A stretch of DNA of 32,000 bases, from assembly GCA_041649575.1 (NCBI GenBank), contig JBAZMW010000002.1, forward strand, positions 30,001-62,000, written 5' to 3'. The notes under the pieces are model-generated. The model saw only the letters and a list, made by a program, of their open reading frames with translations. It searched no databases and was not told the DNA's origin. This DNA is from Patescibacteria group bacterium (lineage in GTDB: Bacteria > Patescibacteriota > Patescibacteriia > 2-01-FULL-39-33). The position numbers and the translations under genes were made by a program. Shown here piece after piece: positions 8,664 through 31,202 of the stretch (position 1 is its first letter; each line of letters opens with the position of its first letter).

Positions 8664-9536
8664 ATGGAAAGTTATCAAAAAAAGTCATTATCCGTCGTAG
8701 TCCCCGTTTATAATGAGGAGAAGACAGTCGGTCAGGTTATGGCCAGTCTAAAGAGCGAATTATCAAAATTAGACGTCCAGTACGAAATTATTGCGGTTAA
8801 TGACTGTTCACAAGATCAAAGTCTGGTTGTTTTGGAAAAGATAGATGGAATTAAGGCAATAAGCCATCCTCACAATAAAGGCTATGGCGCCTCTTTAAAA
8901 ACTGGCATCAAGGCCAGTCAATATGAATGGATCTTAATTATCGATGCCGACGGCACTTATCCCATCGATTCCATTGCAAAGTTGCTGGAAAAAATCCCTC
9001 AGTACGACCTGGTGGTGGGAGCGCGTGATAATAAAAGCAGCGCCATTCCTTCAAGTCGCAGGCACGCCAAGGGATTTTTAAATAAATTCGCCGGCTATTT
9101 AGCTGGCCGCGAGATACCAGACTTAAACTCTGGGTTAAGAATTTTTAAAAAAGATATCATTTTGAAATATTGGGAATTATTTCCTAATAAATTTTCTTTT
9201 ACCTCTACTTTAACCATGACTTGTTTAACCCATCAGTATGAAACAATTTTTCTGCCAATCGATTATTATAAAAGACAGGGCAAGTCGTCGTTAAAACCAT
9301 TTGAATTTTTTGTTTTTTTGAAATTAATTATTAAACTGTCTTTATTTTTTAAGCCACTTAAGGTTTTTATTCCGATTAGCTTATTTTTACTGTTTATAGC
9401 AATACTACTAACAATTCTGTTTCTCGTGGGCGTTCTCGGCGCTTTTATGAACACAACAATCATGGTTTTATGCGCGACCGCGTTACAAACTTTTTTCTTC
9501 GGTTTGTTGGCGGAAATAGTCATTCATAATAAATAG
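8664..9536 (+). CDS. GT2 polyprenyl-phosphate glycosyltransferase (GtrB/ArnC/CsbB/DPM1-like)
   Basis: Matches include LSVVVPVYNEEKTV, AVNDCSQDQS, HPHNKGYGASLKTG and the DXD motif IIDADG. There are two C-terminal TM helices (IPISLFLLFIAILLTILFLVGVLGAF and LCATALQTFFFGLLAEIVI). It is a paralog of 28945..29835. Confidence 0.85.
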   Translation: MESYQKKSLSVVVPVYNEEKTVGQVMASLKSELSKLDVQYEIIAVNDCSQDQSLVVLEKIDGIKAISHPHNKGYGASLKTGIKASQYEWILIIDADGTYPIDSIAKLLEKIPQYDLVVGARDNKSSAIPSSRRHAKGFLNKFAGYLAGREIPDLNSGLRIFKKDIILKYWELFPNKFSFTSTLTMTCLTHQYETIFLPIDYYKRQGKSSLKPFEFFVFLKLIIKLSLFFKPLKVFIPISLFLLFIAILLTILFLVGVLGAFMNTTIMVLCATALQTFFFGLLAEIVIHNK

Positions 9537-9541
9537 TAATA

Positions 9542-10306
9542 ATGGATAATTTTTTTAAACGTTTGGTAAAAGAACTCAAATATATCGCAGGTTTGGGTTG
9601 GACGTTTAAAGCCGTGGGCGAACACTGGGACAAAACAACAGATTATGACGATATAAACGAAAGGACCTATTCTTACTTCCGACGCTTTGTCGATGCTGCC
9701 AAGCTATTTGATTTACCTGATCAAAAATACACCCTGGATATTTGTTCCCGGACGGGCAATGGCAGTTTGTACTTTTGGCAGAAAGGAAAGATTTCTCGGG
9801 TGGTCTGTGCCGATGTCACCCAAAAGATGCAGTTGATTTGCGCGGCTAATCTAAAAAAATATCCGATTAATTTTGAGCTCGAGTATTTTGACAAGTACCC
9901 CTTGCCTTTTGGGGATAATGAATTTGAGACTATTTTAAGTTTTGAAACCATAGAGCATGTTCCTCAGCCGCAAGTTTTTATCAAAGAATTGTCTCGGATT
10001 TTGAAACCAGCCGGCTTAATGGTTTTGACAACCCCAAACGTTTTATGGGAGCCGGTTCATTGGTTGGCCGCTATTTTTAACATTCATCATAGCGAGGGAC
10101 CGCATCGTTTTCTCCGGCATCATAAAATTAAAAAACTGCTCAAGCAAAATAACCTGGAAATAATAAGAGAGGGGACTTTTGTTTTAATCCCCGGTGGGCC
10201 CAAGCCTTTAATAGCATTTGGAGAAAAACTGGAAGAGACTTTGCCCCAGTTTATTTTAAGATGGCTGGCTTTGAGAAGAATTTATATTTGTCAAAAAAAT
10301 AAATAA
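9542..10306 (+). CDS. Class I SAM-dependent methyltransferase
   Basis: Matches are LDICSRTGNGS (a degenerate motif I), VVCADV, FETILSFETIEHVPQP and LKPAGLMVLTTPN. Confidence 0.72.
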   Translation: MDNFFKRLVKELKYIAGLGWTFKAVGEHWDKTTDYDDINERTYSYFRRFVDAAKLFDLPDQKYTLDICSRTGNGSLYFWQKGKISRVVCADVTQKMQLICAANLKKYPINFELEYFDKYPLPFGDNEFETILSFETIEHVPQPQVFIKELSRILKPAGLMVLTTPNVLWEPVHWLAAIFNIHHSEGPHRFLRHHKIKKLLKQNNLEIIREGTFVLIPGGPKPLIAFGEKLEETLPQFILRWLALRRIYICQKNK

Positions 10307-10316
10307 TAAAAATAAA

Positions 10317-10973
10317 ATGGATTTGATCAAAGCAATAAAAAACAGACGCAGCGTTAGGACCTTTCAGCACAAACCAGTAGCCAGAGAATTGATCGAGAAG
10401 CTGATAGAGTCGGCTATTTGCGCTCCCTCGGCTTGCAACATTCAGGGCTGGAAATTTATCGTGGTTGATAATCAGGACGTCAAAAAAAGCATAGTAGACG
10501 CCGGCGGCTCGGTTTTGATTGAAAAAGCGCCTTTAGGAATCCTGGTTTTATATAACAACCGAACCCACAATGTCGGCTATCGTGATTATATCCAAAGCGC
10601 GTCCGCGGCGATAGAAAATTTGCTTTTGACCGCCACTAGCGAGGGCCTGGGGGCTTGCTGGATCTGCCATCTGCCTCGGCCTGGGAATTTACGAAAAATT
10701 TTTAATATTCCCAAATCTTTTTCTCCCATCGCCTATCTACTATTGGGTTATCCGGAAAATCAGCCTCAGGCCGTGCCGCGTAAATATCGGCTCGACGAAG
10801 TTATGGCGGTTAATAAGTTTTCTCCAAATTGGCCCAGATTAAAAGTGAGTTGGCTCGGACTAAAGATTAAAAGATTATTAATCGCCATTTATAATTTAAT
10901 GCCAACCATCATTAAGAAAAAATTTTTGAACAAATTAGTTGACAAGAACTTCGTAAAAAAGTTTGAAAATTAG
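10317..10973 (+). CDS. Nitroreductase-family flavoprotein with an extra C-terminal amphipathic/basic tail
   Basis: AIKNRRSVRTFQHKPV, APSACNIQGWKFIVV and GLGACWI are hallmark nitroreductase/NADH-oxidase-fold motifs. The last roughly 45 aa (LKVSWLGLKIKRLLIAIYNLMPTIIKKKFLNKLVDKNFVKKFEN) lie beyond the usual fold. Confidence 0.8.
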   Translation: MDLIKAIKNRRSVRTFQHKPVARELIEKLIESAICAPSACNIQGWKFIVVDNQDVKKSIVDAGGSVLIEKAPLGILVLYNNRTHNVGYRDYIQSASAAIENLLLTATSEGLGACWICHLPRPGNLRKIFNIPKSFSPIAYLLLGYPENQPQAVPRKYRLDEVMAVNKFSPNWPRLKVSWLGLKIKRLLIAIYNLMPTIIKKKFLNKLVDKNFVKKFEN

Positions 10974-10979
10974 GAAATA

Positions 10980-12395
10980 ATGAAAATAATTTTTATCAAT
11001 CCGCCGGTTAAGAATCTCATTACCGCTAATGTGCCTATGGTGGTAGAGGAGGGAGGCCGTGGCGCGCTGCCGCCTCTAGGTATTTTGTATGTGGCCGCCT
11101 ATTTAAAAAAATATACCAGCAATGAGATTAAAATTTTGGATTTGGAGCTGGAATCTAAAAGCGATGAGGAAATTGGTGATTACCTTTTAAAAGAAAAGCC
11201 CCAGGTCGTCGGCATCACTTTGATTTCCTTTCTTTTGATCGATGTCATTAATTTAATTAGCTTGATTAGGCGCTTTTTGCCAGAAGTGAAAATAATTGCC
11301 GGTGGTCCGCATGCCTGCATTTATCCGGTTGAAACTTTAAATAGTTTGCATGTTGATTATGTCGTCTTAGGCGAAGGCGAATTGCCCTGCTTTGATTTGA
11401 TCAGTAATTTGGATGACCTAGAAAAGTTAAAGAAAGTTAGGGGATTGGTTTTTAAAGATGGTGAAGAAATTATCAATACCGGCCCCAGAGAATTGATTCA
11501 AGATTTAGACTCCTTGCCCTTTCCTGCTCGGGAATTGACAGAGTACAAAAAATATTATTCCACCCTGGCCTTGGCCAATCCGACTACCACCATGTTCACT
11601 TCCAGGGGCTGTCCTTACCAGTGTGTTTTTTGCGACCGGCCACACTTGGGCAAGTTTTTCCGGGCGCGATCAGCAAAGAATGTGGTTGATGAAATGGAAG
11701 AAGTGGTTGGCTTGGGTATTAAAGAAATTTATATTTATGACGACACCTTTACCATTGATCGTCAACGAGTAGTTGATATCTGCGAAGAGATTTTGAGGAG
11801 AAATTTGAAAATTTATTGGGATGTAAGGGCCAGAGTCAATACGGTAGATGAAGAATTGTTAAAACTCATGAAAAAAGCCGGTTGTTCCCGAATTCATTAT
11901 GGAGTCGAATCTGGTGTTGATCGGGTGTTGGAGAACCTTCGCAAAGGCATTACCGTTGAGATGGTCAGGCGCGCTTTCAAAATGACGAAAATAGTTGGAA
12001 TTGAAACGGCAGCTTACTTTATGGTTGGTTGCCCCGGTGAAACTATGGACGATATTAAAAAGTCGGTAGAACTGGCCAAAGAATTAAAGCCGGCCTATGT
12101 TCATTTTTCGGTATTCAGTATTTACCCGGCCACGGACGCCTATCTTAGGGCCTTAAAGGCTGGTTTAGTTAAAAAAGACGTTTGGCAAGAATTTGCCGCC
12201 GCGCCCTCGGCTGATTTTAAACCGCCGCTTTGGGAGGAAAATTTTAGTCGGGAACAGCTAATTGAAATATTAAACCAGGCCTACCGCTCGTTTTATTTGA
12301 GGCCAAGTTATGTCTTTAAAAAATTAGTCGAAATAAAATCATTTAGCGATCTTTGGCACAAGGCAAGGATTGGATTGAAGATCTTTAGGATTTAA
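10980..12395 (+). CDS. Class-B radical SAM enzyme with B12-binding-like domain (stand-alone paralog of the rSAM half of 24267..26660)
   Basis: Matches are IIFINPP...LPPLGILYVAAYLKKY...IIAGGPHACIYP...VVLGEGE, the CxxxCxxC motif TSRGCPYQCVFC, YGVESGVDRVLENL, MVGCPGETMDD and the conserved C-terminal block YRSFYLRPSYVFKKL. It is one of the few genes with an SD-like AGGA (10972..10975). Confidence 0.9.
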   Translation: MKIIFINPPVKNLITANVPMVVEEGGRGALPPLGILYVAAYLKKYTSNEIKILDLELESKSDEEIGDYLLKEKPQVVGITLISFLLIDVINLISLIRRFLPEVKIIAGGPHACIYPVETLNSLHVDYVVLGEGELPCFDLISNLDDLEKLKKVRGLVFKDGEEIINTGPRELIQDLDSLPFPARELTEYKKYYSTLALANPTTTMFTSRGCPYQCVFCDRPHLGKFFRARSAKNVVDEMEEVVGLGIKEIYIYDDTFTIDRQRVVDICEEILRRNLKIYWDVRARVNTVDEELLKLMKKAGCSRIHYGVESGVDRVLENLRKGITVEMVRRAFKMTKIVGIETAAYFMVGCPGETMDDIKKSVELAKELKPAYVHFSVFSIYPATDAYLRALKAGLVKKDVWQEFAAAPSADFKPPLWEENFSREQLIEILNQAYRSFYLRPSYVFKKLVEIKSFSDLWHKARIGLKIFRI

Positions 12396-15133: not shown

Positions 15134-16471
15134 ATGATTTTTTTAAAAAAGATTCTCTCTTTAAGAAACAAGAAATTTGTTCGGGACGCTTCGGTTTTAC
15201 AGCTGGGATCAATATTTTCAACCGGCCTGTCTTTTTTGGCTTCCATTGTTTACGCTCGGATTTTGGGTATAAATGGTTATGCCAATTACGCTTTGATTTT
15301 TGCCTTTGTCAGTTTGACCGGGATTTTTATGAATGTGGGCACTAATGAGACGGCGATTACTCTTTTAGCCGAGGCTTATGCCGAAAACAACAGGGAGAAA
15401 ATTAAAAATCTTTTGACCTATTATATAAAAATAACCTTTTTGTTCGCTTTGGTAGTCGGATTAATAATTATTATTTTTGCTCCGTTTTTAACCTCGCTTT
15501 TTTACCACAACCGAGAAATCGGCCGGCTGGCCAGGATTGTTGTCATCGGCAACATCAGCCAGATTTTTTTCTACATGTACACGATAGTTTTGCAAATCAT
15601 GAGAAAGATAAAGAATCTTACTATTGTTGAAAATTTGAATAAAATTTTTGGCGTGGTTGTTCCTGTCTCCCTGGTTTTAGCCGGCTTTGGCTTAAAGGGT
15701 TTGGTTTTTGGTTATCTTGTAGTCACTCTCTGTTTTGCCTTATTTTCTATATTGGCTTATCGCCGGCTTTGGCTAAGAAGCCAAGTTTTACCTTCCTGGT
15801 TGGAAATTATCGGCAATTTAAGGCGGGTTAAATTGGCCTATTATTTCAAATTCGGTTTTTTAATTGCGGTAGATAAAAATTTGGGCAGTTTGTATAGTAC
15901 TCTGCCAATTTTTATTCTAGGTATGTTTAGTTTCGACCAGGTGGCTTTTTTCAAAATAGCAACGGCCTATGCCGGGCTACCCTCGATCTTAATTAGTCCG
16001 GTTTCTCGTTTATTAATGGTGCAATTGCCAAAGTCAAAAATCTACAGCCTGGCCATTCTAAAAAGAGATTTTGTCAGGTCGTCTTTTGGCGGCTTTCTGA
16101 TTACTTTTGGTGCGGCCTTGGTTCTGGTTTTTCTGGCGCCCATATTGATTCCCTTGGTTTATGGCCAAAGTTATTTATTCGCTATTTGTTTATCCTATCC
16201 TTTGCTGCTTGGCACGGTGATTTCAAGCTGGGGCTTGGGTCTTAGCTCAATTTTTAGAACCTTGAATTTAATGAAAAAATCGATTATAATTAATTTTGTT
16301 TTGATCGTCGCCGGCAGTGGTCTCTTATGCTTTCTGGCTAAAAATTATTCCATTAATGTTTCGGTCTGGGCGATCGCTTTGTGGCTGCCTTTGGCGACAA
16401 TGGTGTTTTTCTTCTATGTCTTAAACTATATGAATAAAAAAATAAAAGTGACTAATGAAACTGGAGAATAA
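15134..16471 (+). CDS. Wzx/MOP-superfamily oligosaccharide flippase
   Basis: The 445-aa product is hydrophobic throughout, with about 12-14 TM helices. The N-terminus KKFVRDASVLQLGSIFSTGLSFLASIVYARILG is typical of polysaccharide-biosynthesis (Wzx/RfbX) proteins. A 35-nt gap precedes it, one of only three gaps longer than 30 nt in the window. Confidence 0.75.
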   Translation: MIFLKKILSLRNKKFVRDASVLQLGSIFSTGLSFLASIVYARILGINGYANYALIFAFVSLTGIFMNVGTNETAITLLAEAYAENNREKIKNLLTYYIKITFLFALVVGLIIIIFAPFLTSLFYHNREIGRLARIVVIGNISQIFFYMYTIVLQIMRKIKNLTIVENLNKIFGVVVPVSLVLAGFGLKGLVFGYLVVTLCFALFSILAYRRLWLRSQVLPSWLEIIGNLRRVKLAYYFKFGFLIAVDKNLGSLYSTLPIFILGMFSFDQVAFFKIATAYAGLPSILISPVSRLLMVQLPKSKIYSLAILKRDFVRSSFGGFLITFGAALVLVFLAPILIPLVYGQSYLFAICLSYPLLLGTVISSWGLGLSSIFRTLNLMKKSIIINFVLIVAGSGLLCFLAKNYSINVSVWAIALWLPLATMVFFFYVLNYMNKKIKVTNETGE

Positions 16472-22262: not shown

Positions 22263-23279
22263 ATGATTGATTTTAAAAATCTACCTCAAGTTGCCGGCAA
22301 TATCCTTAAAGCGAGGATTGGCCATCGCGTTCCTCTGAAAGTCACCCAGTATGTGACTTATCGTTGCAATTTAGCTTGTGGTTTTTGCGGGCGTCGTTAT
22401 TTGAAAACGTCAGAAATGGCCACCGAGCAGATTAAAAAATGCATGGATGAGTTTAAGAAAATGGGTACGATTTTTTGGTCTTTTAACGGCGGTGAGCCGC
22501 TGCTGCGTCCGGACATTGGGGAATTAATTAATTATTCCCAAAAATTAGGATTCAAGTGTTCCATTATGACTAATGGCACCTTAATTCCGGAAAAAATAGA
22601 GCAGTTGAAAGGCTTGGATTTAGTCGAAGTCAGTCTCGATGGTCCCGAGGAAATAAATGACGCCATTAGGGGTCAGGGCACCTTTAAAAAAGTTATCAAG
22701 GCGATAGAAATATTAAGGGCTAATAACATCTTGGTCTGTATTGATTCGGTTATCAACAGCACCAACCTCGATTATTTAGACGAGCTTTGGAAAATAAGCG
22801 AAAAATACGGTACTCAATTGGAGTTTCAGCCGGTTATTATCCATAGTGGTGATCAAGAAAAAAAAGCGGCTCAATATTTTCCGGCCAAGGAAAAATTTTT
22901 GGTGGCGATTAACTGGTTAATCGCTCAAAAGAGACAAGGCCGTAAAATTAACAACTCTTTTTCTTATTTAGAACAACTAAAAAGTTATCCAGATCTGCCC
23001 ATGTCTTTAGACTGCTGGGCGTCTTATCTTTTTTGTGTCATCACTCCCGATGGCTTTGTGGCGCCTTGCGCCGTTATGCTTGATGAACAGGAGAAATTCA
23101 AAAATGGCCTGGAAGTTAGTTTTGAAAAAGCTTTTTATAGTCTACCGGATCTTAAAAAATGTCGTCGTTGTTTTTTTAGTTGTTATGGGGAATATAACTG
23201 TGCGCTTAATTCATTAACTAAAACCGGATTAAAGTTTATCAAAAATAAAATATTGGGTAGCGGTTGGTTTTGGCAGTAA
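22263..23279 (+). CDS. Radical SAM enzyme with a full SPASM-type C-terminal domain (7 Cys)
   Basis: The cluster motif is YVTYRCNLACGFC (CxxxCxxC), with NGGEPLL as the SAM-binding GGE. The C-terminus is DCWASYLFCVITPDGFVAPC (CX12GX4C) followed by CRRCFFSCYGEYNC (CX2CX3CX5C). It is the last gene of the + array. Confidence 0.85.
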   Translation: MIDFKNLPQVAGNILKARIGHRVPLKVTQYVTYRCNLACGFCGRRYLKTSEMATEQIKKCMDEFKKMGTIFWSFNGGEPLLRPDIGELINYSQKLGFKCSIMTNGTLIPEKIEQLKGLDLVEVSLDGPEEINDAIRGQGTFKKVIKAIEILRANNILVCIDSVINSTNLDYLDELWKISEKYGTQLEFQPVIIHSGDQEKKAAQYFPAKEKFLVAINWLIAQKRQGRKINNSFSYLEQLKSYPDLPMSLDCWASYLFCVITPDGFVAPCAVMLDEQEKFKNGLEVSFEKAFYSLPDLKKCRRCFFSCYGEYNCALNSLTKTGLKFIKNKILGSGWFWQ

Positions 23280-23298
23280 TTTATTTTTTTTGCCAAAA
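23268..23298. repeat. 8-bp inverted repeat (TTTTGGCA / TGCCAAAA, 15-nt AT-rich loop) spanning the two convergent stop codons
   Basis: Read directly from the sequence: 23268..23275 is ttttggca and 23291..23298 is tgccaaaa. Each arm is inside the last codons of a SPASM rSAM gene, and both proteins end ...FWQ(KK). The function is unknown; it could be a weak bidirectional terminator. Confidence 0.5.
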
Positions 23299-24270
23299 AA
23301 AGAAGATGTCTGCGTACATATTCCAAACATCACACTTGGCGCAGATGGAAATCTGGTCATACTTACCTTGAAGATGAAGTTGCCTATATTTTTTTATCAA
23401 TTCTGAATTCCAAATTTTATTAACGGTTTGGTCACTGGCGTTTCCCAAGACGCCCACTCTGGCTAGGTCGTCGCAACAAATGGAGACATCGCCGTTAAAA
23501 TGGACAGCCGGGGAAAACCACAGATGATAACAAGGATATCTTTTGTGATTTTTTCTGACATGGCTTTTTGCCACGTTGCCGCCATAATTGTGTTGGTCTC
23601 GCAGTTCGATGATGACTTTTTCGTTTTGCCATTTGGAAATGAAGTTTTTTGCCTGCGATTGCGTGTCATCGTCAACAATCATCCGGACAAAAATTTTTGG
23701 TTTTGCCGCCCGCCCCTTAATTTTTATCAGCTCTTTGACGTTTTTTTCCACTTCATCTAGTTTGTCCACCCCGGTTTTTTCGCGGTAGGTTTGCGCTTCC
23801 GGGCTTAGGAAACTAATGGAAACCTTGTCAATCCCGATTCTAACAATCTGTTCTGCGATGGTCGGAGACAGTAGAGATCCGTTGGTGGTTAAGGAAATGC
23901 TGTTTCGCCGATTTTTTTCTTTGATGTATTTGGCCATCTCCATGAGCCGTGGGTTAATCAGCGGTTCACCAGACAAATGGAGAGAAAAATTTCTCGGGCC
24001 ATAATTGGCCGCCTCATTAACTATCTTTTTAAAAAAATCAAAATCCATACTACCGATCAGGGTTTTGCCGGTTATCCGGGCGCAGATGCGGCAATTGAAA
24101 TTACAAACAGAGGTCGATTCCAAAAAAATATGTTGAGGGAAATCATAATTGATCATCCTTTGGACAAAGACTTTTTTAAACCAGCTAAGAGGCGGGAAAT
24201 TACTCCAATCATCTAGTTTTTTGACGTTGATTTTAGAATTTAGATAGCTGAAAAAATCATTTTTAGTCAT
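23281..24270 (-). CDS. Radical SAM enzyme with an abbreviated SPASM/twitch-type C-terminal domain
   Basis: The cluster motif is ESTSVCNFNCRIC, with LSGEPLI as the GGE-like motif. The C-terminus is CYHLWFSPAVHFNGDVSICC (CX12GX4CC) followed by CAKCDVW (CX2C). It is the last gene of the - array, and its start overlaps the upstream gene as ATGA. Confidence 0.8.
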   Translation of the reverse strand: MTKNDFFSYLNSKINVKKLDDWSNFPPLSWFKKVFVQRMINYDFPQHIFLESTSVCNFNCRICARITGKTLIGSMDFDFFKKIVNEAANYGPRNFSLHLSGEPLINPRLMEMAKYIKEKNRRNSISLTTNGSLLSPTIAEQIVRIGIDKVSISFLSPEAQTYREKTGVDKLDEVEKNVKELIKIKGRAAKPKIFVRMIVDDDTQSQAKNFISKWQNEKVIIELRDQHNYGGNVAKSHVRKNHKRYPCYHLWFSPAVHFNGDVSICCDDLARVGVLGNASDQTVNKIWNSELIKKYRQLHLQGKYDQISICAKCDVWNMYADIFFFWQKK

Positions 24271-26660
24271 GGAGATGGGTTTATTTTTTTAAAAGGCACT
24301 GGTTTAAAGATGGTCATAATTGCTCCCCATAAGCTGGTTAGGATAAAATTAAGCAGAATAATTTCAGATAGTAGTACCAGTGATTCAGTGGATTTTACCA
24401 GCGGCCCCAAAAGAATAATAAGCGCGGCCTCTCTGGTGCCGATACCCAGAAAAGATATGGGCAGCAGGCTTAGAAAGGAAGCGATCGCGACAGAGGTTAT
24501 CAGTTCAGGAAAACTGACGACGGTTAAATTTATAGCCTGGCCGAAAAAGTAAATCTGTCCCGAATAAATTACCCAAGAAAGAGCCGTGATCAAAAATCCT
24601 ATAAAATACGTTTTGTAATTGTAGGTTTTTAGGCCGGTTTTAAAACTATTAATCTCGCTAGTCAGGCCAGCAGGCATCAGCCGATAAAATATTTTTTCAA
24701 TAAATTTTCTAAAAAATTTATTTTTTATGGCCAGCAGCGCCGCCAGAATCAGCAGGATGATTACAAGGTAGAGTAGAAAGAATTTTTCCAAATAACGACT
24801 GAAAAAGAAAATCAAACCAACTAAGCTAAATAGTAGTAAAAAAAATAAATCAAACAATCTATCCATAATAACGCTTACCAGAGACTCTCCTGATTTATAG
24901 CCTTTGGCTTTCAAATAATAAATTTTGATCAGTTCGGCGATCCGGCCGGGCGTAACGGAAGCAAAACCCAAGGCCGCGATATAGATTTTAAATGATTCCA
25001 TTATTTTGTAAACAATGCCTTGTTTTTTCTTAAGATAATTCCAACGCCAGGCCCTTACAAAAAGGTAAGGAACAGTTAAAAGCATGCCGAATAGCATAAG
25101 GGCATAGTTCATGGTTTTTAAAAGCTGGATCGTGGCCGTCCAGTTGATTTCCTTGGCAATAATAACAACCAGAACCAAACTAATTAGAAAATAATATTTT
25201 TTGGAAATAGTTTTCAACGGCCGATAAAAGGGAGAGTTTTTAATGATCAATTTCAAAAGCTTGATTCCCGCCCGTAAATTATTTTTTAAATTATTCCAAC
25301 TGCGCAATTCTAAAATTCTTCTTAAAATATAACGTGGCGCAAGGTAATATGAGCGGTAGGCGGCAATCACCATGGAAAACAGTTCCTTTCGGGAAAAAGT
25401 TTCGTCCCAAACCGGCGGCAGAAAATCTGGTTTAGGGTCGAGCGCGAATTTTTGCCAGAAATCTTCTTTAAAAACGCCTTCTTTTTTCCCCATTAGATAT
25501 AAATCAGTAGCCGCGGGAAACAAGGTTAGCACAGAAAAGTGGACATAGTCGGGAAAAAGTTTTTTGGCTAATTTGATCGTTGCTTTGATATCGGCTTCAG
25601 TTTCATGAGGCGAACCGATCATAAAATACCCGGCCGTTTCTATGCCCGCCTTTTTCGTCAGGGCAAAAGCCTTTTTGACCATGGGCATAGAGATATCTTT
25701 TCTTAATATTTTGAGGATTTTTTCCGTACCCGCTTCAACACCGTAGTGGATTCTGGTGCAGCTAGCCTTTTTCATTAATTTTAACAACTCTTCATCCACG
25801 GTGTTGACCCTAGCTCTCACATCCCAATTTATTTTTAATCCCTTTTGGATAATGAGGCGGCAGATATCTATCACTCGTTGGCGGTCAATGGTAAAAGTGT
25901 CGTCGTAAATGAAGATTTCTTTAATGCCTAATTTTTTTATCTCTTCCATTTCCGCGACCACATTGGGAGCGCTCCGAGCCCTGAAAGCCTTGCCCATGTG
26001 CGGCCGATCGCAGAACAGGCATTGGTAGGGGCAGCCACGCGAGGTGAACATAATGGTCGTGGGATTTTTCTGGGCTACTATGGAGTAATATTTTTTGTAA
26101 GGAGTGAGTTCTCTGGCTGGAAAGGGCAAAGAATCCAAATCTTGAATTAATTCCCTTTTTCCAGTATTGATAATCTTCCCACCTTCCTTAAAAATCAGTC
26201 CTTTGATGTTTTTTGTTTTTTCCGGATTATCAAGATTATCAAGTAATTCGGCTAAGGCTATCTCGCCTTCACCTACCACCAGATAGTCAACAAAATCGTT
26301 ATTAATGGTTTCTTCTGGATAAAGATAGGTATGAGGTCCGCCCAATATTATTTTTATCTGCGGGTTGGCTTTCCTCACGGCCTGGGCGATTAGGTAAACA
26401 TCGATTAAGGAAAAAGTCAAAACCGTGATGCCGATTGCATCAGGATCCTCGGCCACAATCCTGGAAACAATTTCCTCATTGCTGATGTCCTCCATCGGAC
26501 AATCCAGCACTTTTACCTGGTGAGGAGTATTTTTTTGTAGGTAGCCGGCCAAATATAAAAGACTTAGAGGCGGTAAAAAATCCATGCCCGATTCCAGTTC
26601 TTTGGGCATGTCGCTTTCAATTATTTTGGCGAGCGGCGGGTTAATTAAGAGTATTTTCAT
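24267..26660 (-). CDS. Fusion protein: class-B radical SAM (aa 1-~475, nt ~25235..26660) plus an 8-TM flippase-like domain of the UPF0104/LPG_synthase_TM (MprF N-terminal, HpnL-like) type (aa ~485-797, nt 24270..~25208)
   Basis: The N-terminal half has ILLINPP...LPPLSLLYLAGYLQKN...ILGGPHTYLYP...LVVGEGE, TSRGCPYQCLFC and YGVEAGTEKILKIL. The C-terminal half has about 8 hydrophobic helices plus family hallmarks: VRAWRWNYLKK, TPGRIAELIKIYYLK and LLPISFLGIGTREAALIILL. It is a single uninterrupted 797-codon ORF. Confidence 0.85.
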   Translation of the reverse strand: MKILLINPPLAKIIESDMPKELESGMDFLPPLSLLYLAGYLQKNTPHQVKVLDCPMEDISNEEIVSRIVAEDPDAIGITVLTFSLIDVYLIAQAVRKANPQIKIILGGPHTYLYPEETINNDFVDYLVVGEGEIALAELLDNLDNPEKTKNIKGLIFKEGGKIINTGKRELIQDLDSLPFPARELTPYKKYYSIVAQKNPTTIMFTSRGCPYQCLFCDRPHMGKAFRARSAPNVVAEMEEIKKLGIKEIFIYDDTFTIDRQRVIDICRLIIQKGLKINWDVRARVNTVDEELLKLMKKASCTRIHYGVEAGTEKILKILRKDISMPMVKKAFALTKKAGIETAGYFMIGSPHETEADIKATIKLAKKLFPDYVHFSVLTLFPAATDLYLMGKKEGVFKEDFWQKFALDPKPDFLPPVWDETFSRKELFSMVIAAYRSYYLAPRYILRRILELRSWNNLKNNLRAGIKLLKLIIKNSPFYRPLKTISKKYYFLISLVLVVIIAKEINWTATIQLLKTMNYALMLFGMLLTVPYLFVRAWRWNYLKKKQGIVYKIMESFKIYIAALGFASVTPGRIAELIKIYYLKAKGYKSGESLVSVIMDRLFDLFFLLLFSLVGLIFFFSRYLEKFFLLYLVIILLILAALLAIKNKFFRKFIEKIFYRLMPAGLTSEINSFKTGLKTYNYKTYFIGFLITALSWVIYSGQIYFFGQAINLTVVSFPELITSVAIASFLSLLPISFLGIGTREAALIILLGPLVKSTESLVLLSEIILLNFILTSLWGAIMTIFKPVPFKKINPSP

Positions 26661-28099
26661 TTATTTTTTGGCTTTGGTTTAAATAGAATTCGTCCTAATA
26701 TTAGCATACCCAAAAATACGGTTTTTATTCCGTCCCAGGAATTAAGTTGTTTTAATTTGCGAATAATATATTTTGGTCTGAGATAAAACTCGCGGAAGGC
26801 TCTTTTTTGCCAATAGACTAGATCGGCTGGCGTCAGGCTTCTCTGAACCGGCAGAGGCGCCGTATTGCTTAAAGGAGCGAATCTTTCCCAGGGGGTGTCT
26901 TTGGAAATAAGGCCTTCTTTTTGGGCGTAGTAGTACAAATCAGAGCCAGGCACGGGACAGGTGATGAAAAAAGTGGCGTTATCTAAATCTAGGCTTTTGG
27001 CAAAATCAATAGTTTCTCTTATGGTTTCTTCGGTTTCGCCAATATTGCCGAGCATGAAACTGGCGTGCGCCAAGATGCCGTGGCGTCTGGCGATACTGAT
27101 GGCGCGTTTTCCAATCTCGGTGGTAGTTTGTTTGCGCATCAAGCTTAGCACTTTTTGCGAGCCCGACTCCAGCCCAAAAGATATTTTTTTGCATCCGGCT
27201 TTAGCCATTATTTCCGCCAGTTCGTCGCTGATTGTATCGGCTCTAGAGGAACAGATCCAGGCGATGGGCAGTTTTTTGTCAATTATTTTCTGGCAGATTT
27301 CAAATGCCCTGGGCCGGTTTAAGGTAAAGTTATCATCCAAGATGTTAAATTCTTTGATGTTGAATTTATTAATGCATTCTTCGATCTCCGCAATAACGTT
27401 GTCAGCGCTCCGGTATCGCAGGCGACGTTGCCAAATACTTTTGGAAACACAATGCACACAATCGAAGTTGCAACCTCGGCTGGTTTGTAAGGGGGAACAC
27501 TGTTCCTCGGTCAGTTTCTTGGTGGGAGCGGAATAATATAATTTTAGGTCGAATAAATCACGGGCAGGAAAGGGGATATCGTCTAAATTTTGAATCATCT
27601 GGCGGGGCGGGTTGTTTATTATTTCCCCCCGGCGTTTAAAGTATAAACCGTTTATTTTTTCAAAATCGGTTTTTTTATCCGAAAGAGTTTTAACTAATTC
27701 ATAAAAAGTTTCTTCTCCCTCACCAATGACCGCAAAGTCGACGTAAGGATTACTCATCACTTCTTGAGGTAAGATGGTGGGATGAGTGCCGCCAAGAACC
27801 GTGACACAATTTAATAATTCTAAGTCTTCTTTAATGATCCGGCAGATTTCGAGAACATGGTTAATCGTCGGCGAGAGGCAGGTGAAGCCGACGATATCTG
27901 GTTTTTCCTTGGCCAAAAAATTTTTTATTTCTTCATAGCCCAAGGCCATGGCTTCCGTGTCGAGGATTTTTATTTCACAGTCGATTTTGGCACGCAAATA
28001 GCCGGCCAGGTAGGCCAGATTAAACGGCATGGCGTGGCCGCCAGATTCTTTCATGCCCTCGAAGTTTATGTAGGGAGGGTTAACAAGTATGATCTTCAT
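26657..28099 (-). CDS. Class-B radical SAM enzyme with B12-binding-like domain
   Basis: Matches are IILVNPP...AMPFNLAYLAGYLRAK...LGGTHPTILP...AVIGEGEE, the motif TSRGCNFDCVHC, FGLESGSQKVLSLM, MLGNIGETEETI and the conserved C-terminal block REFYLRPKYIIRKL with a hydrophobic/basic tail. Confidence 0.9.
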   Translation of the reverse strand: MKIILVNPPYINFEGMKESGGHAMPFNLAYLAGYLRAKIDCEIKILDTEAMALGYEEIKNFLAKEKPDIVGFTCLSPTINHVLEICRIIKEDLELLNCVTVLGGTHPTILPQEVMSNPYVDFAVIGEGEETFYELVKTLSDKKTDFEKINGLYFKRRGEIINNPPRQMIQNLDDIPFPARDLFDLKLYYSAPTKKLTEEQCSPLQTSRGCNFDCVHCVSKSIWQRRLRYRSADNVIAEIEECINKFNIKEFNILDDNFTLNRPRAFEICQKIIDKKLPIAWICSSRADTISDELAEIMAKAGCKKISFGLESGSQKVLSLMRKQTTTEIGKRAISIARRHGILAHASFMLGNIGETEETIRETIDFAKSLDLDNATFFITCPVPGSDLYYYAQKEGLISKDTPWERFAPLSNTAPLPVQRSLTPADLVYWQKRAFREFYLRPKYIIRKLKQLNSWDGIKTVFLGMLILGRILFKPKPKNK

Positions 28100-28117
28100 A
28101 TGCTTTTGATTTTTATT

Positions 28118-28948
28118 CTAAAGATTATAATTTTCTATTGACAGGCAGTCAAAATTTTTTAAAACGTAATTTAATTTTTTCCAAGTTTTTTGCGCCTGGC
28201 CGTATTTGATGATTTTTCTAATTTTAGGCATCTTGAAATCAGGCGGCTCGCCCAGAAAATCAAAAGGGTGGAAATAAAGACAGGCTGGATTGTTTTTAAG
28301 TTTGAGCCGAAGCAATTTTCTAAACACGAACCAGGGGATAATTCTTAAATAGACACCACCCGCAATGGGAATTCTTATTAGCTTACCGTCAAAAACAGCC
28401 AAGGGCATTTCTTTGATGCCGTTTATCTGGTAAGGGTTGATTTCCCCTTTTTTGTGGCCGTAATTTCTGCTTTTAAAAAATTTAAAAATAAAGTTTGGCA
28501 GACTAAAAGGGAATAGAGAAGAATCAAACTTGATACCTTTTGACGCCAGCACAGGTAGTGCCCAAAAAGTAGAAGAATCCAAAGAAAAATTGACAGCGCG
28601 GTGGCTGACCGGTCTTTTGCTGGTCAGGGCTGTAATCTTGTCCACCAAAATTTCTATTTCTTTTTTAAAGTTGTCGGAATTTTTCTGCCAAAGCGGCCGG
28701 TGATCCAGGGAGTGCAGGCCGATTTCTTGACCAGCGTCATTTATTTTTTTAATTAGGTTTGGCTCGTTTTCTATAACTTTTCCGGTCACAAAAAAAGTGG
28801 CCGTTGCTTTGTTATTTTTTAATAGCGGTAGAATTTTTTCCGTAAAGCTTTCCAGGTTTTCCCGTTCGTTGCCCTTAAGATATCTTTGCAAAGACAAAGA
28901 TTCAAACCAATATTCCAGGTCAAAAGTTAGAATTACTGGATTCATCAC
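28118..28948 (-). CDS. Polysaccharide deacetylase, CE4 superfamily (FDxExW subtype)
   Basis: Matches are ILTFDLEYW (motif 1 variant), GLHSLDH (HxxxH) and VSHRAVNFSL (RAPxFS-like). The track start at 28948 is GTG. An ATG one codon downstream (28943..28945) shares one nt with the upstream TGA and is an equally good start. Confidence 0.72.
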   Translation of the reverse strand: MMNPVILTFDLEYWFESLSLQRYLKGNERENLESFTEKILPLLKNNKATATFFVTGKVIENEPNLIKKINDAGQEIGLHSLDHRPLWQKNSDNFKKEIEILVDKITALTSKRPVSHRAVNFSLDSSTFWALPVLASKGIKFDSSLFPFSLPNFIFKFFKSRNYGHKKGEINPYQINGIKEMPLAVFDGKLIRIPIAGGVYLRIIPWFVFRKLLRLKLKNNPACLYFHPFDFLGEPPDFKMPKIRKIIKYGQAQKTWKKLNYVLKNFDCLSIENYNL

Positions 28949-29835
28949 TGGCGGTTGTTAATTTCTCTTCTAATAGCGGCAATCTGATCGGCCAAAAGAC
29001 CAAAGAAAAAGACGAGAATAGACGCAATAAAGAGGAAAATGGTGCTGTCGGAAAGATTTATAGAAATAAGATCAAAAGCCAGGAAAATTAAAGCGACTAT
29101 AAATAGAATCAGGCTGACCGGAAAAAAAATACGTAGCGGAGAAAAAGTCATAATCAGACGGAAAATCAGCATTAAAGTAGTGAAACCATCGCGCGGTTTG
29201 ACCGTGCTTTTGGAACCACCCTCTCTTTTGTTTATTTCAATAGGCAGAAATTTAACATTTTTTTTGTCTTTCAAAAAAGCCAGGGTAGAAGTGGTGGACA
29301 TGGAAAAACCATTAGGCATCAGGTGCAAGTAGTTTTTAAGAATATTTTTTTTGACCAGGCGTAAGCCGCAGTTTAAATCAGGGATTTTATAATCCACCAG
29401 GTAATTGGCAACAACTCTCAGCAACCACAGGCCTGGTTTTCGCAGAGTCGGCCTGACATATTTGCCGCCAGTCCGATCGCCAGCGATTAGTTCATAGTCA
29501 TTAATATGAGCGATAAAGTTTTTTATATCTTCAGGACGATGTTGGCCGTCGGAGTCAAAAAATAAAATCCAATCATGCCCCGAATTAAGGACTCCGGTTT
29601 TCAGGGCGGCACCATAACCTTTGTTGTAGGGATGGTTTATTAGTTTTATACCTTCAATTTTATTTAGAACTTCTTTGCTATCATCTGTCGAACCGTCATT
29701 TATAACAATAATTTCATGTTCTATTCCCAGACCAATAAGTTCTTTTTTAAGCATTTCCACTGTTTGCTGGACTTTTTGACTTTCATTGTAGACTGGAACG
29801 ACTACAGATAAATTTATTGTTTGATTGTTTTCCAT
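28945..29835 (-). CDS. GT2 polyprenyl-phosphate glycosyltransferase (GtrB/ArnC/HpnI-like architecture); paralog of 8664..9536
   Basis: Matches are LSVVVPVYNESQKV, VINDGSTDDS, HPYNKGYGAALKTG and the DXD motif FFDSDG. There are two C-terminal TM helices (FFPVSLILFIVALIFLAFDLI and IFLFIASILVFFFGLLADQI). Confidence 0.85.
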   Translation of the reverse strand: MENNQTINLSVVVPVYNESQKVQQTVEMLKKELIGLGIEHEIIVINDGSTDDSKEVLNKIEGIKLINHPYNKGYGAALKTGVLNSGHDWILFFDSDGQHRPEDIKNFIAHINDYELIAGDRTGGKYVRPTLRKPGLWLLRVVANYLVDYKIPDLNCGLRLVKKNILKNYLHLMPNGFSMSTTSTLAFLKDKKNVKFLPIEINKREGGSKSTVKPRDGFTTLMLIFRLIMTFSPLRIFFPVSLILFIVALIFLAFDLISINLSDSTIFLFIASILVFFFGLLADQIAAIRREINNRQ

Positions 29836-29843
29836 AAATATTT

Positions 29844-31202
29844 TTATCTCCCTCTGCCTCCCAACGCCACCTTAATGGTTTTAAGTAAAATACTTAGATC
29901 CATCAGCAGCGAACGGTTTTTTATATAATATAAATCATATTTAACTTTTTCCAGAGATTCTTCCTTGGAGCCGCCATAAGCCGGTCCGTTGAGTTGGGCC
30001 CAACCGGTAAGCCCAGGCTTCACCAGCAGCCGTTCCCTGTAAAAAGGCACCTCTTGGGCCAAAATTTGGATAAATTCTGGTCTTTCTGGCCTAGGCCCGA
30101 CCAGACTCATTTCTCCTCGTAAGATGTTAATTAATTGGGGGATTTCATCCAGCCTGGTTTTACGCATTAATCTGCCGAAACGAGTCACTCTCGGATCGTT
30201 TTCACTGGCCCATTGTGGCCCGTTTTTCTCGGCGTTATCAAACATCGAGCGGAATTTCATGGCCAAAAAATTTTTACCGTTTTTGCCAACGCGTATTTGC
30301 TTAAAGACCACCGGTCCCGGACTTTCTAATTTTATGATCAGAGCTATTGGCGGCGCGATAAATATGGCCACTAGCAGGCCGAGTAAAGCCAGAAAGACAT
30401 CCATGATTCTTTTGCTGATCTCATAAAGTTTTTTGGAATGTTCGGCCAAGTTTTCCAAAAACCAGCTGTGTTCCAGATATTCAGCCGGCACTTTATTGGT
30501 TATCTGCTCGTAAAAGCTGTTGATATTATAAACATCAACGCCTAGCGACAAACAGTCGAAGATTTTTCGCGAGATTTCATCATTATTTTTTAAACTATTG
30601 GCGCTGACCAGGATATCCACCTGGTTTTCTTGGCAATATTTTTTTAAATCTTCGGGAACATTTTGGTTGTTTATGGCTTGATACCCTAGTTGCGGCTTAT
30701 GATTTATCTCTCTGATTAACGAATCAGCCAGCGGTGATTGACCAATGATCAGCACCTTATTGCTAATGGCCGAGGATTTTATAAAGGTATAGAATATCCG
30801 ACGCCACAAAAAAGAGAAAACCAAGGAAATAATCACATCTATCGCAAGGACTCTTTGCGGTTTAATACTTCCTAGAAAAGGATTGAAAAAATAAAAAATA
30901 GCTATAGCTATCAGAATGTTTATAACATAAACACGAACTAGCAGATTTAACAGGTTGTTTATATTATAACTTATTTTTAAATCATAAAGCTCGTTAATAA
31001 AAAAAACCAATAACCAGATAACAAAAACCACAGTAAACATAATTACATGTCCTGACCAGAAATAACCGATGTCCTTTAGGCCGTATCTGATAATTAAGGT
31101 CAAGTATAAACCTAGATATAAAGTGGCCAGGTCGCCTAACAAAAGGATGACCTTTTTTGTTTTAATAAAGAAATTAGCCATAATTTTAAGCGATAACTTC
31201 AA
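29844..31202 (-). CDS. Polyprenyl-phosphate glycosylphosphotransferase (WbaP/'bacterial sugar transferase' family), priming enzyme
   Basis: The N-terminus has about 4 TM helices, followed by a central Rossmann-like region. The C-terminal catalytic domain has KRIMDVFLALLGLL...PGPVVFKQIRVGKNGKNFLAMKFRSM...DPRVTRFGRLMRKTRLDEIPQLINILRGEMSLVGPRPERPEF. The track start at 31202 is TTG. The ATG at 31179..31181 (MANFFIKTKK...) is a plausible alternative start. Confidence 0.9.
   Translation of the reverse strand: MKLSLKIMANFFIKTKKVILLLGDLATLYLGLYLTLIIRYGLKDIGYFWSGHVIMFTVVFVIWLLVFFINELYDLKISYNINNLLNLLVRVYVINILIAIAIFYFFNPFLGSIKPQRVLAIDVIISLVFSFLWRRIFYTFIKSSAISNKVLIIGQSPLADSLIREINHKPQLGYQAINNQNVPEDLKKYCQENQVDILVSANSLKNNDEISRKIFDCLSLGVDVYNINSFYEQITNKVPAEYLEHSWFLENLAEHSKKLYEISKRIMDVFLALLGLLVAIFIAPPIALIIKLESPGPVVFKQIRVGKNGKNFLAMKFRSMFDNAEKNGPQWASENDPRVTRFGRLMRKTRLDEIPQLINILRGEMSLVGPRPERPEFIQILAQEVPFYRERLLVKPGLTGWAQLNGPAYGGSKEESLEKVKYDLYYIKNRSLLMDLSILLKTIKVALGGRGR

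Follow-up and report, generated by a model that had tools for sequence, protein, structure and literature searches.

What might radical chemistry be doing in a gene set that otherwise looks built to load a sugar onto a lipid carrier and to move it across a membrane? This question is raised by six adjacent minus-strand genes in a 32,000-nt stretch of DNA from a Patescibacteria group bacterium (assembly GCA_041649575.1, contig JBAZMW010000002.1, positions 30,001 to 62,000), hereafter the window. The first-pass annotation of this stretch had described six open reading frames (ORFs) encoding a polyprenyl-phosphate glycosylphosphotransferase (PGT), a family 2 glycosyltransferase (GT2), a carbohydrate esterase family 4 (CE4) deacetylase, a radical S-adenosylmethionine (rSAM) enzyme with a B12-binding domain (B12-rSAM), a second B12-rSAM fused to an LPG_synthase_TM domain, and an rSAM of the SPASM/twitch kind. 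The ORF list contains all six at exactly the coordinates that it gave, and every domain call was upheld by Pfam and NCBIfam (Table 1). The tight coupling that it reported is also there: of the five junctions, three are overlaps of 1-4 nt (GT2/CE4, and, through ATGA, B12-rSAM/fusion and fusion/SPASM rSAM), and two are gaps, of 8 nt (PGT/GT2) and 18 nt (CE4/rSAM). On balance, we think that the genes 28945-23281, from the GT2 gene downstream, form, within a large surface-glycan locus of this member of the Patescibacteria (the Candidate Phyla Radiation, CPR), a branch that tailors a sugar on its lipid carrier.

The C-terminal domain of the fusion protein is assigned to the PF03706/MprF superfamily by sequence profiles and by predicted fold. 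It scores 133.7 bits with PF03706 in Pfam (E 1.3e-38, cut-off 33.4) and 68-73 with TIGR00374 in NCBIfam (cut-off 43.2); in the AlphaFold2 (AF2) model, residues ~490-790 have a predicted local distance difference test score (pLDDT) above 90, and Foldseek matches this half to MprF (7duw, probability 1.00, 341 columns). MprF surfaced in the structural search, and a profile of the domain run against PDB sequences gave no match. PF03706 (UPF0104, IPR022791) is the flippase domain of MprF, also called PplT, whose listed fusion partners include aminoacyl-phosphatidylglycerol synthase, GT-A and GT-B glycosyltransferases, kinases, methyltransferases and others, a radical SAM partner not being mentioned in that survey (10.1101/2022.03.11.483950). 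The alignment behind the AF2 model has depth over the flippase half only, and the rSAM half was modelled poorly (predicted TM-score, pTM, 0.50), for which reason we claim no interface between the domains; in Foldseek this poorly modelled half matches AprD4, OxsB, MgmA and TsrM.

The fused ORF occurs on contigs from several assemblies, and a fused protein that is 80% identical (P0002) comes from another sample, so the join is not an assembly artefact. It is rare: P0002 is the one further fused sequence seen among the best 120 of 4,522 matches, and none of the best 150 listed cluster representatives (of 14,781) matches both halves, the long ones being other fusions. In L002, L006, L079 and L080, four related loci, the rSAM and PF03706 genes are separate and overlap by 1-4 nt. 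The junctions can be laid side by side: in an unfused pair from Buchananbacteria the rSAM ends with "...LIIKK" and a stop, and the flippase gene begins "MTKPLNYSIFKKYYFLIG...", whereas the fusion of the window reads "...LIIKN-SPFYRPLKTIS-KKYYFLIS...", with a linker of ~11 residues. The fusion is a clean in-frame join of genes that are separate in relatives. Because those genes are adjacent and translationally coupled there, the join suggests a complex in which the radical enzyme and the flippase act together.

The nature of the lipid carrier is suggested by the GT2. This protein (Glycos_transf_2, E 3.4e-30 in Pfam) has a DSD motif at residues 94-96 and two to three C-terminal transmembrane (TM) helices, with a hairpin at residues 220-282. 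Its best NCBIfam matches are AglJ, PpgS, PgfS and ArnC, all below their equivalog cut-offs, and its seven best sequence matches in the PDB are ArnC (three), the archaeal DPMS 5mlz and GtrB (three). Judged by its DxD motif, its TM hairpin and its closest relatives, it is a predicted polyprenyl-phosphate glycosyltransferase of the ArnC/DPMS/GtrB type. The adjoining deacetylase combines Polysacc_deac_1 (E 5.7e-21) with DUF3473 (E 1.4e-17), carries TFDLE and HSLDH motifs and is predicted to be cytoplasmic, with neither a TM helix nor a signal sequence; its best NCBIfam match, TIGR03006, scores 139.5, below the cut-off of 276, and ArnD only 19.5 bits. Its start may lie at the ATG at 28945. In a related locus (L078 6457-7989, plus strand), a CE4 deacetylase with DUF3473 forms part of a 510-aa fusion with a class-I SAM methyltransferase, which hints that methylation may be tied to deacetylation there, possibly as N-methylation of the freed amine.

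A conserved partner, the 574-aa protein 20534-22258 on the opposite strand, was left outside the interval considered by the first-pass annotation. Although it has 10 predicted TM helices and no Pfam or NCBIfam match, 23 of its 67 homologues match PMT_2, and its AF2 model (pLDDT 91.5, pTM 0.91) shows a GT-C glycosyltransferase fold, as all 23 PDB matches that Foldseek returned at E ≤ 1e-3 are GT-C enzymes (AglB, STT3, PglB, ArnT, ALG9/12 and DPY19). Alignment with hhalign of the small locus-derived membrane-protein alignments against a PMT_2 protein gave a probability below 2%. Since no WWDxG motif of oligosaccharyltransferases is evident in the family consensus, we do not class the protein as one of these. 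Orthologues adjoin the module in at least eight CPR loci (L002, L004, L006, L010, L028, L041, L046 and L048). The window also encodes a second GT-C of the PMT_2 family (6885-8657), whose orthologue lies next to that of the first in L004/L034. GT-C enzymes use polyprenyl-phosphate-linked donors at the outer face of the membrane, and this preference fits a GT2 whose seven best solved relatives are ArnC, DPMS and GtrB.

The same combination recurs. All of the ~20 CPR loci sampled carry a cassette made up of PGT, GT2, often CE4, one to three B12-rSAMs, PplT, a twitch-like rSAM and a GT-C. Eight loci were sampled from the rSAM side (L002, L004, L006 and L078-L082; six are independent, and two more contigs are near-duplicates), and all of them have an ArnC-type GT2 upstream as well as a SPASM/twitch rSAM; seven encode an unannotated protein of ~520-590 aa, and six each have a CE4 gene (usually with DUF3473), a PF03706 gene and a PGT gene. 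In the sample taken from the flippase side (63 loci, with each GTDB species represented by one genome), a B12-rSAM gene adjoins the PF03706 gene, or is separated from it by no more than one gene, in every Patescibacteria locus and in a few metagenome-assembled genomes (MAGs) otherwise labelled, including Aenigmatarchaeota. Two of these loci, L041 and L048, have two GT2-rSAM(s)-PF03706 modules each. The PF03706 loci of non-CPR bacteria in this sample come from Sorangium (~17), Aquimarina (~14), Chloroflexi, Caldithrix, Verrucomicrobia, Nitrospirae and Prochlorococcus; there a GT2 is usually nearby (adjacent in Sorangium) and sometimes a methyltransferase, and none has an rSAM. As the GT2 is found in both kinds of loci and the rSAM only in those of the CPR type, GT2 and PF03706 appear to be a general pair into which an rSAM layer was inserted, and this layer is a speciality of CPR (and DPANN).

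The stand-alone PF03706 genes near a GT2 and without an rSAM (for example in L017-L040, L011, L012, L047 and L068) suggest in their own right that a GT2-PplT pair for lipid-linked sugars is widespread and uncharacterised. Cassettes of the CPR type also occur in MAGs labelled as Gammaproteobacteria (L046), Rickettsiales (L052), Aenigmatarchaeota (L044) and Nanoarchaeota (P0096), which may mean that these MAGs are misbinned or that DPANN archaea share the cassette.

The radical enzymes themselves are numerous. Within its 32 kb the window encodes six complete B12-domain rSAMs and two rSAMs without a B12 domain, and a further, partial rSAM ORF lies at its edge (genes at positions 64, 1791, 10980, 12415, 17072, 22263, 23281, 24267 and 26657); the rSAMs of the operon all keep the CX3CX2C motif. 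The first class-B protein of the operon belongs to an orthogroup ('B12_26657') conserved in the CPR loci L004, L028, L041, L048 and L051. Stand-alone homologues of ~470 aa that are 55-68% identical to the rSAM half of the fusion are found throughout the best 120 of its 4,522 significant matches, those among the best 120 that carry a source name being almost all from Patescibacteria; 14,781 cluster representatives match this half at E ≤ 1e-30, and its closest solved relatives are AprD4, MgmA, OxsB, CysS and TokK. Both class-B proteins of the operon have a B12-binding domain and the CX3CX2C core and may bind cobalamin; AprD4, the best solved relative, has a B12-type domain yet is not known to bind cobalamin. 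The last protein of the operon has Radical_SAM and SPASM matches in Pfam, and because it has only five C-terminal cysteines we regard it as twitch-like, that is, with a partial SPASM domain. Its best relatives in the PDB are BtrN (5e-9), a dehydrogenase, and DesII, a weak similarity that hints at oxidation of a sugar hydroxyl.

Patescibacteria have very small genomes and are generally thought unable to make cobalamin, so that many B12-rSAMs in one locus are striking; related loci (L048 and L051) have up to five or six in a row. Unusual forms exist among the rSAM relatives as well, namely giant polyproteins of 2,000-2,300 aa (P0283, P0288 and P0291; P0283 consists of one SPASM rSAM and four B12-rSAM units), an rSAM::methyltransferase (P0289), an intein-interrupted protein (P0297) and tandem rSAMs, with P0306 and P0384 also among the unusual ones. 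One locus (L082 13712-17353, minus strand) encodes a 1,213-aa protein predicted to join an epimerase/dehydratase acting on nucleoside diphosphate sugars, a B12-rSAM and a DegT-type aminotransferase. In another rSAM-rich glycan locus (L081 12848-15403, plus strand) there are genes for ferredoxin, cysteine desulfurase, NifU and an FNR-like reductase, which look like a dedicated supply of Fe-S clusters and electrons for radical enzymes. The nearest annotated relatives of the rSAM half of the fusion, 35% and 30% identical, belong to plasmid glycan loci of Solidesulfovibrio carbinolicus (pDCAR1; L071 12234-29660) and Lawsonia intracellularis (plasmid 1; L077 1621-13434), respectively. These Desulfovibrionaceae loci encode several rSAMs and SIS-domain proteins, that of Lawsonia also five class-I methyltransferases, and in neither did we detect a homologue of the flippase-like domain or of the GT-C.

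We propose that these parts act in sequence. At the cytoplasmic face, the ArnC/DPMS/GtrB-type GT2 would load a sugar, presumably an N-acetyl-hexosamine, from a nucleotide sugar onto polyprenyl phosphate, and the cytoplasmic CE4/DUF3473 protein would remove the acetyl group, as ArnD, HexD and GpgD act on lipid-linked sugars. The two class-B rSAMs and the twitch-type rSAM would then modify the lipid-linked amino sugar, the MprF-type domain fused to the second rSAM would move the finished lipid-linked sugar across the membrane, and GT-C 20534-22258, perhaps also GT-C 6885-8657, would add the sugar to a glycan started by the PGT and exported by a Wzx flippase. We place tailoring before flipping because the rSAM domains are soluble and the CE4 protein lacks both a TM helix and a signal peptide. 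The substrates and the order of the steps are what we infer from families and folds, and this applies above all to the radical chemistry. Most characterised class-B rSAM enzymes carry out C-methylation, and by this analogy it is the most likely outcome here, to which we would give about half of the weight. Ring contraction or rearrangement, for which OxsB offers a precedent, might deserve about a fifth, and deoxygenation of the AprD4 kind, AprD4 being the best solved relative, about a seventh; the remainder would go to other reactions, oxidation being one that is possible. HpnJ is a further precedent for ring contraction or rearrangement (PMC13459092).

How does this proposal compare with systems already characterised? 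Three of them, Arn, HexSDF and GpgSDF, are closer analogues than the hopanoid genes to which the operon had been likened, and were missed in the first-pass annotation. In the Arn pathway, ArnC is a GT2, ArnD a CE4 deformylase acting on Und-P-L-Ara4FN, ArnE/F the flippase and ArnT a GT-C. ArnC, which belongs to the same GT2 family as the enzyme of the window and resembles it most among solved structures, charges undecaprenyl phosphate with the sugar; a CE4 enzyme de-acylates the carrier-bound sugar, a dedicated flippase follows, and transfer outside is by a GT-C, ArnT being among the fold matches of 20534-22258. Where the GT2, CE4 and GT-C parts are concerned, the Arn pathway comes closest by analogy, and three-component GtrB/GtrA/GT-C glycosylation systems are alike in more general terms. 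However, Arn and Gtr systems are devoid of radical SAM enzymes, they use a flippase of the EmrE/GtrA type rather than PF03706, and the CE4 protein of the window carries DUF3473 and resembles ArnD weakly. In HexSDF of Clostridioides difficile, a glycolipid synthase, a polysaccharide deacetylase and an MprF-like flippase yield an aminohexosyl glycolipid (PMC10128005); in GpgSDF of Pseudomonas aeruginosa, a GT4, a deacetylase and a UPF0104 protein yield glucosaminyl-phosphatidylglycerol (PMC12713373). Here the resemblance is one of logic: an N-acetylhexosamine is put on a membrane lipid, a deacetylase frees the amine and a PF03706 protein is the predicted flippase, all from one operon. The window has the deacetylase and PF03706 and lacks the soluble GT-B synthase; the HexSDF and GpgSDF synthases act on glycerolipids, whereas the GT2 here is a TM-anchored GT-A, and those systems have no rSAMs or GT-C and make a membrane lipid as their end-product. 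Fusion of a flippase domain to an enzyme that makes or modifies the lipid is known from MprF (aminoacyl-phosphatidylglycerol synthase) and from AglD and other euryarchaeal proteins (GT-A) (10.1101/2022.03.11.483950), but the fused enzyme here is a tailoring enzyme and not a synthase. AprD4, OxsB, BtrN, DesII and GenK/GenD1 share the class-B or twitch architecture and act on amino sugars, aminocyclitols or deoxyribose; they differ in that their substrates are soluble antibiotic intermediates or nucleotides, that identity is 20-30%, and that none is linked to a lipid carrier or flippase.

These comparisons open two other ways of reading the genes. The module might make a finished amino-glycolipid in the manner of HexSDF, GpgSDF or hpnIJKL: the GT2 would glycosylate a membrane lipid, perhaps acquired from the host, and the head group would be deacetylated, tailored by radical chemistry, flipped outward and kept there, without serving as a donor for a GT-C. 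Triads of glycosyltransferase, deacetylase and PF03706 protein that follow this logic have been characterised experimentally (PMC10128005, PMC12713373), the hpn operon amounts to such a triad plus an rSAM, PF03706 is the lipid-flippase domain of MprF (10.1101/2022.03.11.483950), and rSAM-made cyclitol head groups are known, from genetics only, for HpnJ and the archaeal calditol synthase Cds (PMC13459092). We nevertheless consider this unlikely, since the synthases of those triads are soluble GT-B enzymes whereas the solved relatives of the GT-A with a TM hairpin found here use polyprenyl phosphate, since the GT-C that adjoins the module in at least eight CPR loci fits a lipid-linked sugar that serves as a donor, and since the module sits within a PGT/Wzx/GT4/GT9 glycan locus. 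Alternatively, the rSAMs might act on soluble nucleotide sugars, or on another soluble substrate, before transfer, the fusion being a tether or an accident of adjacency. The dehydratase::B12-rSAM::aminotransferase protein of L082 comes from the same kind of locus, related rSAMs occur in the Solidesulfovibrio and Lawsonia glycan loci without a detectable flippase or GT-C neighbour, and the fusion is very rare, with two sequences and none among the best 150 representatives listed. What makes us regard this, too, as rather improbable is that the rSAM gene of CPR lies between the GT2 and flippase genes and is often translationally coupled to the latter, that the fusion has been kept in two lineages 80% identical, and that the CE4 gene precedes the rSAM genes. 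CE4 enzymes act on glycans or on lipid-linked sugars, as ArnD does on Und-P-L-Ara4FN, and none is known to us to use a nucleotide sugar.

Tailoring on the carrier is thus the reading that we favour, and it draws support from the closest solved rSAM relatives (AprD4, OxsB, BtrN and DesII), which act on sugars or amino sugars. Several points weigh on the other side. The members of the cassette are known from genes and predicted structures; the acceptor lipid and the sugar of the GT2 are deduced from its family, and all family scores are far below curated cut-offs. With enzymes acting on sugars the rSAMs share 20-30% identity, a distant likeness that mostly reflects the common core fold, and it is the rSAM half that AF2 modelled poorly in the fusion. 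The L082 fusion implies that at least some rSAMs of such loci probably use nucleotide sugars as substrates. Of the eight loci sampled from the rSAM side, two lack CE4 and two lack PF03706, and hence neither is an obligatory partner. Finally, flippase activity of stand-alone PF03706 proteins is unproven even for HexF and GpgF (PMC10128005, PMC12713373).

It would be tempting to go further and to read the operon as hpnI/J/K/L-like, as the first-pass annotation did. The hpn layout that it relied on was right, as two genuine loci show: that of Mycetohabitans has hpnI-hpnJ-hpnK and a gene for an "LPG synthase domain protein", with overlapping genes, and that of Paraburkholderia has hpnJ-hpnI-"LPG synthase domain protein" with hpnI-hpnK nearby. 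Likewise, HpnL does belong to the same InterPro/Pfam superfamily as the C-terminal domain of the fusion (10.1101/2025.07.29.667474; 10.1101/2022.03.11.483950), and the window encodes, as stated, no squalene-hopene cyclase (SHC) and no other protein passing an hpn model in Pfam or NCBIfam. The parallel in activities and operon logic is therefore real, with a GT2, a class-B rSAM, a deacetylase and a PF03706-superfamily membrane protein on both sides, and HpnJ remains a precedent, by genetics only, for an rSAM that remodels a lipid-linked amino sugar (PMC13459092).

For none of the proteins, however, does orthology follow. Among the 19 NCBIfam matches of the GT2 there is no HpnI model. In BLASTP searches with real hpnI/J/K/L proteins from two plasmids (a database of 16 sequences), neither GT2 of the window matches the three real HpnI proteins and the CE4 protein does not match the two real HpnK proteins. 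The flippase domain does not match the HpnL model TIGR03476, the generic TIGR00374 being its sole NCBIfam match at E ≤ 0.01; with the two LPG-synthase-domain proteins of the hpn operons it reaches a BLASTP E of 0.004-0.013, insignificant in a database of that size, and phmmer finds no match to HpnL-type proteins at 1e-3. The UPF0104/HpnL-like character claimed for this domain holds at the level of the superfamily and not for HpnL specifically. HpnJ is the top NCBIfam match of the rSAM half of the fusion, with 227.9 against a cut-off of 577.6 (BchE 210), and rSAM 26657-28099 scores 243.8 with BchE and 197.2 with HpnJ, both far under the cut-offs; none of the window's B12-rSAMs comes near any curated cut-off. 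Against real proteins, the fusion half has 28% identity and 142-145 bits with HpnJ, 157-169 bits with BchE and 340 bits with an uncharacterised rSAM of the Solidesulfovibrio plasmid glycan locus, and all six complete B12-rSAMs of the window score at least as high with BchE as with HpnJ. In a neighbour-joining tree the CPR rSAMs form orthogroups of their own, apart from the HpnJ and BchE clades, so the placement in an HpnJ-like clade, which the first-pass annotation had itself named as a test, fails, the scores being also under the cut-off of TIGR03471. The systems differ further in that the hpn lipid is a hopanoid rather than polyprenyl phosphate, the hpn deacetylase is YdjC-like rather than CE4, hpn loci have no PGT or GT-C, and the hpn rSAM is not fused to a membrane protein. 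Moreover, HpnG, HpnI and HpnJ are confined to genomes with SHC and HpnH (10.1101/2025.07.29.667474). Hpn orthology was rejected on these models, searches and tree, and a true hopanoid pathway acting on a triterpenoid polyol, for which the order of activities and the HpnJ match might have spoken, is almost certainly not what these genes encode. The broader proposal made at the same time, of a carrier-linked amino sugar that is deacetylated, rebuilt and flipped, does fit the conserved context, the fusion and the adjacent GT-C; the Hpn family assignments attached to it do not hold.

Table 1. Features of the window discussed in the text (positions are those of the 32,000-nt stretch)
Feature	Position	Strand	Basis and remarks
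PGT gene	29844..31202	-	ORF list, Pfam/NCBIfam
GT2 gene	28945..29835	-	ORF list, Pfam/NCBIfam
CE4 deacetylase gene	28118..28948	-	ORF list, Pfam/NCBIfam
B12-domain rSAM gene	26657..28099	-	ORF list, Pfam/NCBIfam
B12-rSAM::LPG_synthase_TM fusion gene	24267..26660	-	ORF list, Pfam/NCBIfam
Class-B rSAM half of fusion, residues 1-~478, orthogroup 'FUSN'	25227..26660	-	Pfam B12-binding and Radical_SAM
MprF-flippase-like domain of fusion (PplT/PF03706/UPF0104)	24267..25226	-	Pfam, NCBIfam, AF2/Foldseek
SPASM/twitch-like rSAM gene	23281..24270	-	ORF list, Pfam/NCBIfam
Promoter-like TTGATT-17 nt-TATAAA	31205..31233	-	Read by eye, immediately upstream of PGT gene; weak evidence
rSAM with weak DUF3463 match	22263..23279	+	Pfam; best NCBIfam match mycofactocin maturase at 127
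GT-C fold glycosyltransferase, 574 aa	20534..22258	+	AF2 and Foldseek
Wzx-type (Polysacc_synt/MATE) flippase	15134..16471	+	Pfam; conserved in L002, L006, L028
Paralogous module: GT2, SAM methyltransferase, nitroreductase-fold protein, B12-rSAM	8664..12395	+	BLAST, Pfam
Second GT-C (PMT_2) membrane glycosyltransferase	6885..8657	+	PMT_2 34.6 against cut-off 26.1; 11 TM helices

The operon does not stand by itself. A glycan locus of 31 kb or more fills the window, and the six genes, far from being self-contained, make up a single arm of it; the locus also contains a paralogous GT2-rSAM module. Between 64 and 23279 the plus strand encodes four more complete B12-rSAMs and the partial rSAM ORF at the window edge, three GT4s, one GT9, a second GT2 and a second CE4, a Wzx-type flippase, a nitroreductase-fold protein, three SAM methyltransferases, the rSAM with a weak DUF3463 match and three polytopic membrane proteins of 574-590 aa. 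Radical enzymes that modify lipid chains (Tes/Grs-like) were considered as well, but the context is glycan-related throughout. All-against-all BLAST gives 43% identity between the GT2 of the paralogous module and that of the operon, and 58% between the B12-rSAM of the module (10980-12395) and the rSAM half of the fusion; the order GT2-nitroreductase-methyltransferase-(CE4)-rSAM of this module is also found in L002, L078, L080 and L081. The convergent rSAM gene 22263-23279 ends 1 nt from the operon; its product scores 72.6 with the HpnH model (cut-off 225), and L004, L005 and L080 have rSAM ORFs similarly placed, a likeness of position alone.

The PGT has a strong Bac_transf match (E 7.9e-68), passes TIGR03025 (372.7 against 295.6) and has five predicted TM helices in a large WbaP/WcaJ-like architecture. 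It had been called WbaP-type, which is apt for the architecture but not for the subfamily, as TIGR03022 (WbaP) scores 214.7 against a cut-off of 403; TIGR03013 (XrtA type) reaches 359 with a cut-off of 393. Its translation probably begins at the ATG at 31181, giving 445 aa, rather than at the TTG at 31202, as suggested by the promoter-like sequence upstream and by the 445-aa annotation of the source contig. That sequence, whose second hexamer ends in A, was not called by a consensus scan; the scan for promoters and terminators gave the same counts as in shuffled sequence and no internal terminator of note. Beyond the 3' end of the window, past the PGT gene (L001 1-5361), there are genes for a divergent S8 peptidase, a GtrA-family protein and an epimerase, and a GT2-DUF2304-GT2 set; L004 has this set too, and Lawsonia plasmid 1 likewise has GT2 genes beside DUF2304 genes.

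BluB is the synthase of dimethylbenzimidazole, the lower ligand of B12, and it is the best NCBIfam match (82 bits against a cut-off of 150) of the nitroreductase-fold protein encoded at 10317-10973 (plus strand) in the paralogous module. Counterparts occur at L002 7340-7996, L078 5795-6451, L080 5901-6557 and L081 4366-5022. The protein could supply or remodel cobamides, or could be a flavin reductase for the rSAMs. An Rfam scan found no cobalamin riboswitch or other RNA. The 579-aa protein 5085-6824 (plus strand) has ~12 predicted TM helices, no match in Pfam or NCBIfam even at E ≤ 10 and no homologue detected in the related loci; it may be polymerase- or ligase-like, or a further GT-C. A defence role for the rSAMs was considered and rejected, as the PADLOC models gave only generic similarity to the rSAM core (viperin and PDC-M51A).

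The first-pass annotation knew of no earlier description of such a module, and in the open-access full-text literature searched we found no class-B rSAMs within GT2/flippase/GT-C modules and no rSAM::PF03706 fusion. Modification of an amino sugar at the level of the carrier, with a dedicated flippase and GT-C, is known; what is new is a layer of radical SAM tailoring that is physically coupled to the flippase. More tentatively than for the locus itself, and with somewhat more doubt than conviction, we suggest a widespread pathway in Patescibacteria and some DPANN in which class-B rSAMs would edit a polyprenyl-phosphate-bound amino sugar, by C-methylation or by rearrangement of the ring or skeleton, in complex with an MprF-type flippase that would hand it to a dedicated GT-C. 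If the rSAMs do act on the carrier-bound amino sugar, this would add a new layer to the scheme of loading on undecaprenyl phosphate, flipping and transfer by a GT-C; no earlier case is known to us in which radical SAM enzymes work on a sugar carried by polyprenyl phosphate.

Such a pathway would be of interest to specialists in glycobiology and in radical SAM enzymology alike. Many uncharacterised class-B rSAMs, including the 14,781 cluster representatives mentioned above, would gain a functional context, and the stand-alone PF03706 proteins beside GT2s in many phyla would gain a role, namely the flipping of polyprenyl-phosphate sugars; the rare rSAM::flippase fusion is a natural construct for probing the physical coupling. 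CPR bacteria are a large and mostly uncultured share of bacterial diversity and live attached to host cells, which makes it likely that surface glycans are central to their lifestyle, and to our knowledge almost nothing is known of these glycans. If the proposal is true, radical tailoring on the lipid carrier would be a source of unusual sugars, such as C-methylated or ring-rearranged amino sugars, on the surfaces of episymbiotic CPR bacteria.

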